37,516 nt of DNA from a virus (taxonomy: Duplodnaviria > Caudoviricetes). This document shows positions 4,309 through 17,185 of this stretch, one piece after another. Positions within the stretch are counted from its first letter, which is position 1. Each line of letters starts with the position of its first letter. Where the stretch lies: positions 1 to 37,516 of the IMG/VR virus record IMGVR_UViG_3300038393_000348. One strand, 5' to 3'. A model generated the notes under the pieces. That model had not been told where the DNA came from and did not search any database. It saw only the letters and a program-made list of their open reading frames with translations. A program made the translations under genes and the position numbers.

Positions 4309-4423
4309 GGAAGCCCTCCTTTCGATGGCAGGGGCACGGGCACGGCGGGTAGGCGCACCGCTCGTGCTGGCGGGTCAGGCACTGCCCGGATCGGGAGTCG
4401 CCGCGAGGCTGGTCGGTGGTCAT
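4286..4423 (-). CDS. Small Cys-rich protein
   Basis: C...H..C....CPCPCH; ATGA-coupled to the methyltransferase stop. Confidence 0.6.
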   Translation of the reverse strand: MTTDQPRGDSRSGQCLTRQHERCAYPPCPCPCHRKEGFRGSNPLG

Positions 4424-5592
4424 GCGGACGCCTCCCCGTCGTACATGAGGGGCGTCTGTGCGAGCCGAGTCCGCAGCGACAGGTCGAGGTAGTCCCGGTT
4501 CAGGTCGATGCCGACATAGCGGTGGCCGAGGCGTCCAGCTACCAGGCCCGTCGTCCCTGAGCCGTTGAATGGGTCGAGCACCACGCCGCTGGGCTTGCAG
4601 CCAGCTAGGATGCACAACTCAGGAAGTGCGCTCGGGAAGGTGGCGAAGTGCGCCTCTGCGAATGGCTCGGGAGGGAATGTCCAAACGTCGCGCCGGTTGC
4701 GCGTAGCACCGGTCAGGAACTCCCGGTAATAGCCGCCCAGCGCGACCTTCGCTTCGTCTGCAAGGGCTTGGGCTCGCTCGGCATTCCGACCGGCACCGGA
4801 CTGAGTAATGATGGCCTTCCCAGCGTCGTTCATACCGACCGCCCTAATCGCCGCAAAGTGCTCCTCAGTGAGGCCCTTCTCGCGGGCTAGTTCGAGCGCA
4901 CGCCGCAACTGTGGGCGCCCCTCCCATCGGACATCCGTGTCGCGATGACCAACCAGTTCCGGCCTCGCGTATGAGTTGCCGCTCGACAGGCCCGTAGCCT
5001 GCTCTGCGATGGCCTCAGCGTTGTAGTAGTAGCGCCGTGATTTCGTCAGCATGAACACGTGCTCATGTGAGCACGTGGGCCTGTCCGTGACGGCTTCAGG
5101 CATCGGGTTGGTCTTGGCCCAAATGACGCGCGACCGCACAGTCCAGCCGTCGTCCGCGAGCGCAATTGCGGTCCGTTCTGGCACGAGCAGCAGCGACTTC
5201 GGCCTGCCCCACTTCTGGCCGGGACGGTCCACTGATCTGGCCCACCCTCGCCGGGCAGGTTGCTTGCCGTCTGCGGCATTCGGTCCAGGGTTGCCCCGGC
5301 CGGAGTAGTACGAGTCTCCCAGGTTGAGCCACGCAGTCCCATCCGTCGCTAGCACGCGCCGAATCTCGGAGAACAGGGCGCGAAGAGACTCCACATACTC
5401 AGCCGGCGACTCTTCGGTTCCGATCTCATGGGCTTTGTCGGGATGATCTTTCGACAGGTAGGACCGCAGCCCGAAGTAGGGCGGGCTGGTCACGCAGCAG
5501 TCGACGGACTGGTCCGCCATCTCGCGCAGGATTGCGAGCGCATCCCCGTGGTACAGCGTCACCGAGTCGTCTTGGTAGTAGGGCTCGCTCAC
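4420..5592 (-). CDS. DNA methyltransferase, N4-C/N6-A, beta class
   Basis: TSPPYF catalytic motif precedes the HFATFP...VLDPFNGSGTTG SAM-binding motif; GTG start at 5592. Confidence 0.93.
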   Translation of the reverse strand: MSEPYYQDDSVTLYHGDALAILREMADQSVDCCVTSPPYFGLRSYLSKDHPDKAHEIGTEESPAEYVESLRALFSEIRRVLATDGTAWLNLGDSYYSGRGNPGPNAADGKQPARRGWARSVDRPGQKWGRPKSLLLVPERTAIALADDGWTVRSRVIWAKTNPMPEAVTDRPTCSHEHVFMLTKSRRYYYNAEAIAEQATGLSSGNSYARPELVGHRDTDVRWEGRPQLRRALELAREKGLTEEHFAAIRAVGMNDAGKAIITQSGAGRNAERAQALADEAKVALGGYYREFLTGATRNRRDVWTFPPEPFAEAHFATFPSALPELCILAGCKPSGVVLDPFNGSGTTGLVAGRLGHRYVGIDLNRDYLDLSLRTRLAQTPLMYDGEASA

Positions 5593-5843
5593 ACCGCCAC
5601 CCCCACGGCCTTGCGCGTCCTGCGGTAGACCTGCACGCGCCCGTTCTTCCGGCTCGGGCAGGTCGACGCCTTGGTGACGTGGCGGGTGGTGAGGTAGCCG
5701 TTGCGGACGCCCCAGCGGAACAGCTCGCCCCGCTCGAACGTGGTCAACTGGCTGGCCTCCACGACGGGGCGCAGGTCGTCGATGGTGATGTGGGCGCCGG
5801 GCTCGACGGTGGCGAGGATGCGGCGGTATGCGGGCTCGCTCAT
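5589..5843 (-). CDS. Hypothetical protein, possibly winged-helix
   Basis: Coupled starts and stops; TIDDLR...GELF......G.L pattern. Confidence 0.65.
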
Positions 5844-6628
5844 GACGCGGCCTGCCTCTCGTTAGGTTCGGATCGGACCCAGCCATCGGGCGTCGGCTGC
5901 CACCAATCGGCCCTGCCGTGGTGCGCGCGCCAGGCCGGCCACTCGGCAGGGTTCGCCCACGACGGGACGATCCAGCCGGCGAGTGCCGCGTTGCGCGGGT
6001 TGCGGTGCGCCCACTCATGGCAGCGCGGGCAGATGATGACCAAGTTGAACTCGTCGTCGGCTCCCCCCTGGCTCCGCAGCTTCCGGTGATGAACATGCAT
6101 GTAGCGGGAGTGGAATCCGCCGCCACAGCGTGCGCAGCAACCTCCCTCGCGCTCGTAGAGGGCGGCGCGCATGTTCGGGGGCAGGTTCCTACGGCCTGTC
6201 TTGTTCCGTCGCTTGCGGTTGAGAATGCTGGCGCATTTACGGCACCTGCGGGAGCCGCGCTTTGTCAGGTATGCGTCGGAGTAGTCGTGTCCGCGCTGGC
6301 AGACTTGCGTCCCTACCGTCAGTGCCGCTGGGGCTACTCCCCGAAGCATGTTGGTCCGCTGCGTCACCGCCTCCAAGTGGTCGGGGTTCACGCAAGCGCG
6401 GTTGCGGCAGAGGTGATCCAGCACCAGCCCGGCAGGTATGGGCCCGACCTTCTCCATGTACGCGAAACGGTGCGCGCCCATGTAGGTGCCGTTGCCAGCG
6501 TTGAACGTCCCGTACCCCGTGTCAGAGAGGGCACCAGTCCAATGCCAGCACCCGCCTTCGTCCTTGCGAACCTTGGCCCAAAAGCGCTCGGATGGCGTGC
6601 GCTGACGGATTCGTCCGCCCCGCTTCAC
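5840..6628 (-). CDS. HNH endonuclease with two HNH domains
   Basis: [34 protein letters not shown], then CARC..HVHHRK.RSQGG....NL..ICPRCH. Confidence 0.88.
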
Positions 6629-8605: not shown

Positions 8606-9274
8606 TCATGAGGCCACCGCCTCAGCCGTAATGTGGGCCAGCAGTTGGCGGCCGATGTGCTCGGTGTAGGCGGGTGGGATGGCTTCAGCTATGGCCTTGC
8701 GGTCGTCGGTCCAGTCGATCCCCATCGCCTGCTGCCACTCGGGCACGGAGCCCTTGCCGCCGCCCTCGCCGTAGACCGCGACATAGGGGCCGTCGTAGTA
8801 GGTGCCGTGACGCCATCCGCGCACGCGGCCCCGGTGGGGCTTGTGCGCCGGCGGTGTGAAATGGAATCGGGAGAGCTCGAAGTAGCGGTGGCGCAGGACG
8901 CTCAGCCCGAACATCTCACCGCACAGGATCATGTCCCGGCGAAGATCCGAGCCCTGCACGTTCTCTATGACCGAGGGGAGCCGAGTGTGGAACAACATGG
9001 CCCGCGTGGCGGGAATCAGCTGCGTGTATTCGCGCCCCTTGTTGGTTCCCTTGGTCAACGCGGTTGACGCCTGGCACGGAGGGGAGGCGTGAACGGCGTC
9101 GAACATGTGACCATTGCGCTCTGCGTAGTCGAGAGCATCCGCCCTCCAGAATTCGAAGGGGTAGTCGGGCTGAGGATTGATGTCCACGCCAACCACCTCG
9201 AAACCGGCTCGGTGGTAACCCATTCCGGCGCCACCTGCACCGCAGAACAGGTCGAGCAGCAGCGGCCGGCTCAT
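8606..9274 (-). CDS. Short C5-cytosine DNA methyltransferase-like protein
   Basis: LDLFCGAGG (motif I), ASPPCQ (motif IV), IENV (motif VI). Confidence 0.88.
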   Translation of the reverse strand: MSRPLLLDLFCGAGGAGMGYHRAGFEVVGVDINPQPDYPFEFWRADALDYAERNGHMFDAVHASPPCQASTALTKGTNKGREYTQLIPATRAMLFHTRLPSVIENVQGSDLRRDMILCGEMFGLSVLRHRYFELSRFHFTPPAHKPHRGRVRGWRHGTYYDGPYVAVYGEGGGKGSVPEWQQAMGIDWTDDRKAIAEAIPPAYTEHIGRQLLAHITAEAVAS

Positions 9275-10309: not shown

Positions 10310-11080
10310 TCAGTGCCTCCGCTCGTTGTCGTGGCTGCGCAGCACCCACGCGACCCAGGTGACGATCCCGCCAACGAACAGGACGAACAGGGCCACGTAG
10401 GCGGCGTCCGAGAGTTCGGCCCCGGTGTGGGCGAGTTCAGGCGTTGCCGATGCGGCGGCCGAAGATCTCGCGCTCAAACGGCGTGAGGCGTTCGTAGTCG
10501 CCGAGGATGAGGCGGATGCGGTGGAACGAGAGCCATGTCGGGTCGTCGGCGCGCTCGCGGATGGCGCGGAAGTCGCTGAGGTCTGCGTCGTCGTTGGCTT
10601 CGAGGGCGTCGCGGAGGTCGAGGAGCTGCTCGACGGTGACGGGCTGGTCGTCGTCGGGTCCGCACTCGTCGGCGAAGTCGTGGCCGTCGTCGTTGTGGTG
10701 GTCGCGGACGTGGTCTGCGATGGCTCGCTGGACGGCGGGGTCGTTGTAGGCGCCGTGGTGGTGGTCGTAGTGGTCCATGTCGAGGTCTCCGTCTCAGAGG
10801 GCGTCGTCGTGGACGGCGCGGAAGTCGTTGAGGTGGAAGGAAGGTCGGTCGGCGCGGGGGAACAGTGGTCCTCCGAGACGCCGCCGTGGTTGCCGTGCTC
10901 GTCGCAGTCCTGCCCGTGCGTGGGCTGCGGGTCGGGGCGGCAGGGCTGGCCTGAGTTGCCGTGGGTGCAGCCGTCGGTCTCCTCGTGGTGGTCGGCGAAC
11001 GCGGGCAGGGCGCACACCAGGGCCAGGGACGAGCCGACAGCGAGAGCAGCGACGGTGCGGGAGACGGTGAGGGTTCTCAC
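10310..11080 (-). CDS. Secreted, sortase-anchored (LAHTG) Ser/Thr-rich surface protein
   Basis: Signal peptide ending PAFA; His/Cys-rich head; S/T/P stalk; LAHTG, TM helix and charged tail (RSHDNERRH). Confidence 0.85.
   Translation of the reverse strand: MRTLTVSRTVAALAVGSSLALVCALPAFADHHEETDGCTHGNSGQPCRPDPQPTHGQDCDEHGNHGGVSEDHCSPAPTDLPSTSTTSAPSTTTPSETETSTWTTTTTTTAPTTTPPSSEPSQTTSATTTTTTATTSPTSADPTTTSPSPSSSSSTSATPSKPTTTQTSATSAPSASAPTTRHGSRSTASASSSATTNASRRLSARSSAAASATPELAHTGAELSDAAYVALFVLFVGGIVTWVAWVLRSHDNERRH
10437..10778 (-). CDS. Putative nested out-of-frame gene (113 aa) inside the surface-protein stalk
   Basis: GGAG-8nt-ATG; amphipathic helical C-half; stop 1 nt before the LAHTG codons. 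Confidence 0.65.
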   Translation of the reverse strand: MDHYDHHHGAYNDPAVQRAIADHVRDHHNDDGHDFADECGPDDDQPVTVEQLLDLRDALEANDDADLSDFRAIRERADDPTWLSFHRIRLILGDYERLTPFEREIFGRRIGNA

Positions 11081-11244
11081 TTGGCCCACGCCCTGTGCTT
11101 GCCCCGGTACTCGGGCACGAGGGAGTTACGACGCAGCGAGTCGCGGAAGGCTGATCGGATGACCGCGTGGACGTCGTCGGCTCGGCGCCTGCCCTCGTAG
11201 ACGGCGGGCGGCGGCTCCGTGGTGGTGCTGGTGGACCCCTTCAT
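11077..11244 (-). CDS. Small hypothetical protein (55 aa)
   Basis: RBS GGAG; MKGSTSTTTEPPPAVYEGRRRA...; GTGA overlap with the surface-protein start. Confidence 0.6.
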   Translation of the reverse strand: MKGSTSTTTEPPPAVYEGRRRADDVHAVIRSAFRDSLRRNSLVPEYRGKHRAWAK

Positions 11245-11264: not shown

Positions 11265-11306
11265 GCGCCGCCCCGCGTTGCAGCGCATTGGGGCGGCGCT
11301 TTCTTG
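11265..11306 (+). terminator. Intergenic stem-loop, with U-tract on the + strand
   Basis: GCGCCGCCCC-gcgttgcagcgcatt-GGGGCGGCGC followed by TTTCTTG. Confidence 0.6.
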
Positions 11307-16312: not shown

Positions 16313-17185
16313 TCAGGAGTCCTTTCCGAGTTCGAGCACGATGGCCTTGGCGAGGGCGTCGACATCGACGTCGGCCGTGGCGGGGAGCGCCGCCTTCACC
16401 GCAGCAGCGATGGCGGCCGGCGACTGAGCCGCGACAGCTGCCCGCAGAGCCCGCGTCTCCGCGAGGATCTTCTGCAGGTAGGAGTCGGCCTGCCAGACGT
16501 CAGAGCCGTCGGGTGAGGGGATGATGTCGGAGCGCCAGATGGTCTTGGCGTCGGCTTCGGTCAAGGGCATGTCGTCCTCCTGGGCGGTCGTGGTGGTAGT
16601 CGGGAAGCCTGGGGCGGCGATGTTGCGGTCGCACGAGCCGGGGATGCCAGGAACGGTGGCCGAGCTGGTGTGCTGCCACGCGACCCACGTCGACCATGGG
16701 GCGGGCGCTGGCGGTGGGGTGGAGCGGTAGTTCGCCAGCCACAGTGGGTATGCCGCGAGCGCCTTGCCGCCGCCAAGGTGCTGGGCCGCGAACGCCGAGT
16801 ACGTGTAGACGATCGGGCGGACGCCAGTCGCCTTGTGCACGGTGGTCAGCCAGTCGAGCGCGAACGCGACGGTGGCCGACGACGACAGTGCGGTGGACTC
16901 GAGGTCGAGCACGGGCGGCAGGTCGCCTGGCTGCTGCCGGTGGACGGACAGGAAGTGCGCCGCCTCCTGCGCCCCCGTGCGACCGGCCTGGGGGCGGGCG
17001 AAGTGGTACGCCCCGAGCGGCAGCCCTGCGGCCCCGGCCTTGGCGCGGAAGTCGGCGTACTCGGGATCGGTGTACGTCAGCCCTTCGGTCGCCTTGACGA
17101 ACACGAACGAGCAGCCGGCGGCCTTGGCCTTAGCGAGGTTCGCGCCGCGCTGGTGGTTGCTGATGTCGATGCCCCACGAGGTCAT
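16313..17185 (-). CDS. Endolysin, GH25 muramidase
   Basis: GIDISNHQ, FVFVKATEG, GAYHFA, VLDLE, LWLANY, WQHTS. Confidence 0.95.
   Translation of the reverse strand: MTSWGIDISNHQRGANLAKAKAAGCSFVFVKATEGLTYTDPEYADFRAKAGAAGLPLGAYHFARPQAGRTGAQEAAHFLSVHRQQPGDLPPVLDLESTALSSSATVAFALDWLTTVHKATGVRPIVYTYSAFAAQHLGGGKALAAYPLWLANYRSTPPPAPAPWSTWVAWQHTSSATVPGIPGSCDRNIAAPGFPTTTTTAQEDDMPLTEADAKTIWRSDIIPSPDGSDVWQADSYLQKILAETRALRAAVAAQSPAAIAAAVKAALPATADVDVDALAKAIVLELGKDS

Follow-up and report, generated by a model that had tools for sequence, protein, structure and literature searches.

A candidate gene nested out of frame in the stalk of a predicted sortase-anchored surface protein of a temperate actinobacterial phage

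The stalk of a predicted sortase-anchored surface protein encoded by a temperate siphovirus appears to harbour a second gene in its -1 frame. The explanation that best fits the data as a whole, with a probability of roughly 0.7, is a nested, internally started gene on the same early transcript as the surface protein gene; that the inner frame is a real gene born by overprinting is, judged from the sequences compared, marginally more probable still. The proposal, made in an earlier note on this DNA, that one locus yields both a surface protein and a cytoplasmic protein gained comparative support, whereas dN/dS-type tests were negative or uninformative.

Virus record and locus

The window, i.e. 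the stretch of DNA analysed, is the whole 37.5 kb virus record IMGVR_UViG_3300038393_000348 (37,516 nucleotides), with direct terminal repeats at its ends and a GC content of about 68%. Its genes include an integrase, a repressor-like gene, a GH25 endolysin, a tape measure, a portal and a terminase, and by this sequence content it is a temperate siphovirus. By its relatives it is also actinobacterial: one of the related loci (L028) sits in an Actinomycetes assembly. Near-identical DNA was present in 11 soil and rhizosphere runs, two of which are possible sources.

The nested locus (Table 1) lies inside a long minus-strand run of early genes, next to genes for an annealing protein, methylases, DUF1643, HTH and HNH proteins. 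The coordinates first assigned to the inner frame were borne out base for base on the minus strand.

Table 1. Features of the nested locus in the window
Feature	Position	Strand	Basis
Upstream frame, 55 codons, stop overlapping the outer GTG	11077..11244	-	sequence
Outer gene for a surface protein of 256 aa, predicted to be sortase-anchored; GTG start coupled to upstream stop	10310..11080	-	sequence, relatives
Signal peptide, residues 1-29, ending AFA	10994..11080	-	by eye, no predictor
Four-Cys/His-rich extracellular domain (CxHG..C.PDPQP.HG.DC..HG..EDHC)	10862..10993	-	alignment
Outer-protein stalk (Ser/Thr/Pro/Ala), in which the inner frame lies	10439..10861	-	sequence
In-frame TGA, 15 nt upstream of inner ATG, blocking read-in from further upstream	10794..10796	-	sequence
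GGAG, SD-like, 8 nt before inner ATG	10787..10790	-	sequence
Nested inner frame of 113 aa, in register -1 (= +2) relative to the outer gene	10437..10778	-	sequence
Inner N-terminal part, variable, low model confidence	10647..10778	-	alignment, model
Inner conserved domain, four predicted helices	10446..10646	-	alignment, model
LAHTG, class E-type sorting motif	10421..10435	-	sequence; definition PMC5148588
Hydrophobic membrane segment, then RSHDNERRH tail	10340..10405	-	by eye

The 55-codon upstream frame has its own GGAG and gave no NCBIfam match. A sigma-70 promoter scan near the locus gave no match. A GC-rich hairpin followed by TTTCTT (11267-11301, plus strand), noticed by eye, resembles a terminator for the strand opposite the operon and was not flagged by the scan. 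Two DNA methyltransferases (N6/N4 and C5-like) and a double-HNH protein also lie in this early run (4420-6126 and 8606-9274, minus strand).

The outer surface protein

On its sequence features the outer gene is real. Most likely it starts with a GTG at 11080 that shares bases with the TGA closing the upstream frame. Its four-Cys head is common to 12 proteins and more than a dozen loci, and most of these 12 proteins also have a stalk and an L-P/A-x-T-G anchor. The A-x-A motif of the putative signal peptide (A27 and A29) was invariant in 17/17 aligned rows, and SNPs between co-occurring alleles, as read from tables, fell mostly on third codon positions of the outer frame in the head. All four loci in which the nesting was found combine a signal peptide, LAXTG (LAFTG, LAYTG and LALTG in the relatives), a hydrophobic segment and a charged tail, the features that define class E sortase substrates (PMC5148588, abstract). 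Family HMMs stayed below cut-off for the window outer protein.

The one lysogen genome, which contains L028 (G001), encodes a class E sortase (NF033747, 274.6 bits, cut-off 160), as well as a PMT-family glycosyltransferase. As neither a sortase nor a PMT-family protein was found in the two phage records searched, a host sortase would be used. Export, stalk glycosylation and anchoring of the outer protein are suggested by its motifs; its effect may be to hide receptors or to change the surface of the cell.

The four-Cys/His head (10862-10993, minus strand, in the window; loci L007-L024) is found in numerous records of soil phages, some with an anchor and others lacking one, and had no Pfam, PHROG or PDB match. 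Several mosaic alleles of the outer gene were seen in the same soils, with assembly branch points at window positions 10406-10435, 10676-10705 and 10801-10830; they include the alleles of two relatives of the inner protein described below (P0002 and P0003/P0016).

Relatives of the inner protein and their loci

An exhaustive phmmer search with the inner protein gave 10 matches, of which seven besides the query are true relatives, and a profile search added three more; P0017 and P0020 were removed as repeat-driven. Of the 10 protein relatives, nine carry the C-terminal domain (31-56% identical), recognizable by QPVTVEQLLD ... S..RI..L ... LTP.ER.IF..R, and all nine end 2-8 residues past the last invariant Arg. 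DNA was available for three (L028, L030 and L031), giving four loci with the window. The search for stand-alone or nested homologues that had been recommended for this frame thus found the nested kind in 4/4 loci with DNA, one copy each: in the three relatives the frame has the same register, inside a LAxTG-ended stalk in a phage early region. All four nested genes are interrelated and belong to phages or prophages of soil-type actinobacteria. Their predicted products are 110-145 aa long, acidic (pI 4.6-5.0) and His-rich; the window protein (pI 4.6) has no signal or membrane segment, and its N-terminal part is indeed His/Asp-rich, as previously described. A CxERAEHWH motif found in P0022, P0024 and P0025 is altered in P0003 and absent from the window protein.

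The four-Cys head of the window protein is exchanged for an unrelated domain in the other three nested loci. Since the outer head differs between nested loci, stalk, inner frame and anchor move together as a cassette under exchangeable heads. Both head domains were also found on stalks without such an inner frame. Seven distinct chromosomal genes, each lying next to class F-like sortases, share the head of L028, L030 and L031; a -1 ATG after the head was seen in none of the seven, and five had -1 stops. This second head (PW.CHPV.G.GE.G.GWN.I.P...S.HIDE) occurs in chromosomal surface-protein arrays (L054, L055, L056, L062-L066), which carry a VP.A.TDG motif and adjoining class F-like sortases scoring below cut-off. 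These arrays represent an unnamed sorting system and, in all likelihood, the donor of the phage head.

The linkage of inner frame, stalk and anchor could also be read as a sign of joint function, by a logic like that of Rz/Rz1: the inner gene would be real and its product a cytoplasmic partner of the surface protein, acting with it in superinfection exclusion, envelope control or the like, with both co-inherited and co-expressed. This would be a sub-case of the preferred explanation, from which it differs in the role of the inner protein. The inner frame does travel with stalk and anchor while the head is exchanged, and every DNA context known is nested, with one copy. However, de novo birth in the stalk accounts for this linkage without any partnership; the membrane would separate the two proteins, except for a nine-residue tail; and the remaining outer-family loci that were examined manage without an inner frame. 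Partnership is therefore rated as rather unlikely.

Among 69 records, including all outer-family loci fetched, the inner profile matched the four nested loci only, apart from one weak unrelated match, and it matched 0/400 and 0/300 in other sampled genomes; across these records and the sampled genomes the inner frame is thus less widely spread than the outer one. Annotated phage records contained no inner-protein relative beyond E 0.06, and pattern scans with inner queries gave nothing in viral contigs or metagenome contigs. Three DNA-pattern matches and locus L029 turned out to be unrelated to the inner frame. The relatives were collected through the inner frame, a bias towards intact frames that hides broken ones; six sparse searches through the outer frame returned no homologous stalk with a broken inner frame.

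The allele P0002, seen in two soil runs by a marker base and the divergence point, has the same start and first 44 residues but an unrelated, helical-looking C-terminal half, compatible both with a swap of modules in a real gene and with simple turnover of the stalk. The protein collection contains the inner frame of the window phage, and the outer surface protein was absent from it at the three starts tried, from which it appears that gene callers keep one of the two frames.

Start and stop signals of the inner frame

The inner ATG occupies 10778-10776 and the TGA 10439-10437, with one base between the latter and the LAHTG codons (10435-10421). The outer frame reads ETET over the SD-like motif and STWTT over the ATG, as had been noticed. 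The earlier note also cautioned that openness alone proves nothing, and rightly so: when the outer protein was held fixed and its codons were redrawn 20,000 times, 33% of the draws kept the frame open. An open frame with SD-like motif, ATG and stop at their exact places, which were chosen post hoc, was obtained in 0.1% of draws.

The homologous stalks keep the open frame, the SD-like motif, the ATG and the stop in all four loci; stops in these stalks or loss of the SD-ATG, named beforehand as evidence against the gene, were found in none. GGAG (GTGAG in L031) stands 8 nt 5' of the only ATG of the frame in each locus, and TGA lies one or two codons ahead of the anchor motif. The ATG requires an A-ending outer codon (ACA, ACA, ACA and TCA in the four loci) and the stop a T-ending one (CCT, CCT, GCT and GCT); in the window genes, codons starting with TG are preceded by an A-ending codon in 12/104 cases, and those starting with GA by a T-ending codon in 54/439. 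These rare third bases are kept despite outer Thr/Ser, Pro/Ala and Glu/Asp changes, and start and stop are kept in 4/4 loci though outer fourfold sites differ at about 0.4. By strength of anti-SD pairing the inner start regions fall within the top 3-10%, and they belong to the 7-19% of windows with the least structure; their pairing with a generic anti-SD (-5.0 to -6.8 kcal/mol) is at the weak end of 12 window starts.

The same Met is found in P0002, P0003/P0016 and P0018, so that a start of its own is conserved in these proteins as well as in 4/4 loci, and G-D-x-x-M is common also to P0003/P0016 and P0018. The Met-Pro of P0018, known from its protein sequence, implies an outer Cys in place of Trp; since the Pro after Met entails this replacement, it would be the ATG and not the outer Trp that persists. 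The homologous Met is absent from P0019, P0021, P0023 and P0026, which were called from other starts.

These signals also bear on the idea that the inner frame is reached from the outer one by ribosomal frameshifting, giving a secreted, unanchored fusion of head and inner domain. An inner stop just ahead of the anchor motif would make a neat shed form, and the -1 frame is open far upstream in L028 and L030. Against this, an in-frame stop closes the window frame shortly upstream of the ATG and another does so 9 nt upstream in L031, and frameshifting would have no need for a conserved SD-ATG. This is considered the least probable of the explanations weighed here.

Selection on the two frames

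The tests for selection, among them the frame-specific dN/dS put forward earlier as a check, gave a divided answer: co-conservation and column heterogeneity were positive, whereas dN/dS and synonymous suppression were flat. In the domain alignment of 10 proteins (leaving out P0002 and P0016), 7 of 47 gap-free columns outside the seed motif were conserved in at least nine proteins and three in all ten; the column variance, 0.076 versus 0.030 in a uniform star-tree null, was reached in 0/10,000 simulations, although a looser count (8/10), which is held against the frame, gives p 0.04-0.07. The invariant or near-invariant residues are Ala, Ser, Leu, Leu, Pro, Arg and Arg, with hydrophobic columns four apart, and the inner conservation is patchy, with a helical pattern. 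In LTPxER the inner residues are constant where the outer frame reads RRLS, PQPS, HPQT and PQTS.

Co-conservation of adjacent bases had an odds ratio of 3.7 at inner positions 1-2 and 1.2 at outer positions 1-2, versus 2.2 and 4.4 in controls. With the near-duplicates L003, L012 and L024 left out, the signature was inner-like in 6/6 nested pairs and outer-like in 7/8 control pairs and 3/3 upstream pairs; its interval spans zero in 3/6 pairs and 1/3 disjoint sets, the pairs are not independent, the control pair L014/L023 is also positive, and the signature is partly confounded by the fixed C at outer position 2. Outer synonymous choice produced inner Arg over Gly at 31:8, versus 40:59 in control stalks (the low-GC L009 being left out). 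Inner Leu is CTC 37:CTG 2 and inner Val GTC 31:GTG 0, the ratio in window genes being about 1:1, and this near absence of CTG and GTG indicates that the outer frame still governs codon choice in the overlap.

The dN/dS-type tests lend the inner frame no support. No purifying selection on it was detected: pNN/pNS was 1.82 overall, and when positions were matched it was 1.22 (0.92-1.59), similar to the 1.11 of the control. Outer fourfold sites differed without clear suppression (0.37-0.38 in the overlap, 0.41 upstream, 0.25 downstream), and the twofold/fourfold test gave p 0.007 with the inner-guided alignment only (0.25 DNA-guided, 0.83 outer-guided). These tests are read as uninformative, because the stalk holds the inner wobble position at C and because the frame-specific ratio gave a false 0.47 upstream. 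In the assembled contigs from 8/11 runs, the inner frame varied too little to allow a polymorphism test.

Two supposed costs to the outer protein do not set it apart from controls. A/T-ending stalk codons do not discriminate, since stalk GC3 is 0.77-0.80 in the four nested genes (0.87-0.89 upstream) and 0.48-0.92 in 15 control stalks. The same applies to the odd distal-stalk residues: the R/W/H/L/F/Y share is 0.03-0.07 in the outer stalk versus 0.02-0.08 in 13/15 controls.

It may be asked whether the surface protein is the only product, the -1 frame reading like protein by stalk construction and its signals being shared through descent and patchy recombination. The frequency of open recodings (about one third), the flat dN/dS-type tests, the mosaic alleles, P0002 without the domain and the collection of relatives through the inner frame are all consistent with this, and control -1 frames look protein-like too, a TGA preceding the anchor in three of four control genes. 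It accounts less well for an ATG kept across Thr/Ser and probably Trp/Cys changes, for scattered invariant columns with helical spacing, for a co-conservation signature that, inside one and the same gene, switches where the inner frame starts, and for a fold model far above control; the sparse outer-frame searches, moreover, returned no broken frame. A surface protein without a nested gene is considered improbable, though a good deal less so than frameshifting.

Structure and family searches

AlphaFold, run with seven inner sequences, predicted helices at residues 49-61, 67-76, 79-97 and 100-111, with a block pLDDT of 79-92 and a pTM of 0.54; seven control -1 frames gave a pLDDT of 52 and a pTM of 0.23, their alignment being less homologous than the test alignment. 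The description of the inner frame as a folded helical domain is thus matched by a four-helix model with pLDDT near 90. Single-sequence ESM Atlas models were poor (pLDDT 0.40 and 0.45), and ESM Atlas gave no usable match for the inner protein. A 35-base stretch inside helix 2 duplicates a stalk segment from further upstream (83% copy). This counts against the nested gene, and it also fits an origin of the inner frame by overprinting in the stalk.

The inner proteins matched no Pfam, PHROG, NCBIfam or PADLOC family at cut-off and no PDB sequence, and Foldseek gave no match at E 0.001 for the inner model, whose best fold match (Z 5.2, rmsd 3.5, 58 aligned) lies within the helical-bundle background. 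Two candidate families were rejected: DUF433 (PF04255; Pfam E 0.16 for 1/10 sequences, hhalign probability 0.1% with a shallow five-sequence profile) and sigma-70 region 4 (hhalign probability 0.9% against 12 sequences), where the inner protein ends at the point at which the helix-turn-helix would begin.

A domain predicted to fold this well would be unusual for a young gene, and six relatives known as protein only might be stand-alone, which leads to the suggestion that a pre-existing gene was captured in frame into the stalk. Its codons, however, almost wholly avoid CTG and GTG, the shifted frame of ordinary window genes is open over 113 codons in just 18/281 windows, most relatives have an N-terminus that looks like a Ser/Thr stalk in a shifted frame, and a family or fold match is absent. 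Capture is regarded as very improbable.

Proposed origin and function

For a nested gene born in place, the following course can be proposed. The outer frame would be the older one. Its stalk may need only length and Ser/Thr richness, and for this reason outer codon positions 1 and 3 would have been free for a folded domain; position 2 would have stayed C (as it is in 91/113 outer codons overlapping the inner frame) while positions 1 and 3 spelled the domain. Read in the -1 frame, Thr would become Asp/His/Tyr/Asn, Ser Leu/Val/Ile/Phe or Glu/Gln, Ala Arg/Gly and Pro Ala/Pro, a palette suited to amphipathic helices; Thr-Glu would supply the GGAG, and Glu/Asp before the anchor the TGA. Birth by overprinting is favoured by the wider spread of the outer family together with codon use, the criterion set out in PMC8227390.

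From one early transcript, the surface protein would be translated from a start coupled to the upstream gene, exported, glycosylated on its stalk and anchored by the host sortase. Ribosomes would also initiate at the internal GGAG-ATG and terminate just ahead of the anchor motif. The result would be a cytoplasmic protein, small and acidic, with a domain predicted to form four helices. If the gene is real, this product could be an accessory factor of the early phase, binding some host protein and acting apart from the surface protein, as is common for the products of phage early genes in general. Small size, acidity and early position make such a role the most likely one, at somewhat better than even odds.

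If real, the locus represents a traceable de novo birth of a folded protein in a tailed phage; sister stalks still display the non-coding state, which would open gene birth to direct tests. It also reveals a blind spot in annotation, and a screen for similar nesting could cover other Ser/Thr stalks, which surface proteins often have. More tentatively, and at rather less than even odds, the Ser/Thr stalks of phage surface proteins may be cradles of new genes, in which one lineage fixed a new folded cytoplasmic protein outside any known family, whose C-terminal module is exchanged (P0002), while frames such as that of L021, described below, are births in progress.

Comparison with known systems

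Nested same-strand genes are already known in phages (Rz1) and bacteria (comS, gndA), as is overprinting on disordered regions in eukaryotic viruses: paramyxovirus C overlaps the N-terminal, disordered part of P, and in hepatitis B virus preS1 lies over the polymerase spacer. The likeness to Rz/Rz1 seen earlier is confined to the nested architecture. In lambda, Rz1 is likewise a same-strand gene wholly inside another phage envelope-protein gene, and the survey in PMC6139136 counts 116 spanins embedded in the -1 frame. Unlike these, the window locus lies outside the lysis cassette, as had been pointed out (endolysin at 16313-17185; neighbours being methylase, DUF1643, annealing-protein and HNH genes), and in a phage of a Gram-positive-type host, and no signal peptide or lipobox was seen by eye in the four inner sequences. 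The locus, put forward earlier as the best candidate for an undescribed system, is not established as a system, since nothing shows the two proteins acting together.

Like viral overprinted accessory genes, the inner frame is a restricted, young frame within a widespread older one, where disorder in the partner eases constraint (PMC8227390). The cases treated in that source are mostly from small eukaryotic viruses, 75% of the new frames being +1 and the +2 births the more disordered; in contrast, the present one concerns a tailed phage, a +2 (-1) frame, a new protein predicted to fold and an older extracellular Ser/Thr stalk. With comS in srfA and gndA in gnd it shares an out-of-frame internal start and an independent product (PMC12350097, PMC11230408). 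Those products, cytoplasmic or membrane-associated, are experimentally proven microproteins (GndA has 36 aa) inside enzymes, whereas here proteins of 110-145 aa are predicted in a low-complexity stalk. Surface display from a phage genome is shared with phage-encoded sortase substrates (bioRxiv 10.64898/2026.10.24.761521), and neither this abstract nor that of PMC5148588 mentions a nested gene. A gene nested in a sortase-substrate stalk was not found in the mainly open-licence literature searched.

Similar frames in control stalks

TGA just before the motif was found in three of the four distinct control genes with L-P/A-x-T-G, and 1/16 control stalks (L021) had an SD-ATG frame of its own, from which it follows that SD-ATG starts arise easily. 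In L021 (1493-1696, plus strand), an unrelated stalk of the four-Cys family, GAGGAG is followed after 8 nt by ATG and a Cys-rich -1 frame of 67 codons that ends at a TGA just ahead of ELPYTG; it is possibly an independent birth or due to chance. L014 (2248-2565) and L023 (2103-2423), both on the plus strand, have co-conserved -1 frames (..PGRW.V...YGI.RAWR..) with TGA before ELPYTG, no ATG, GTG or TTG in the stalk, and a weak beta-hairpin model.
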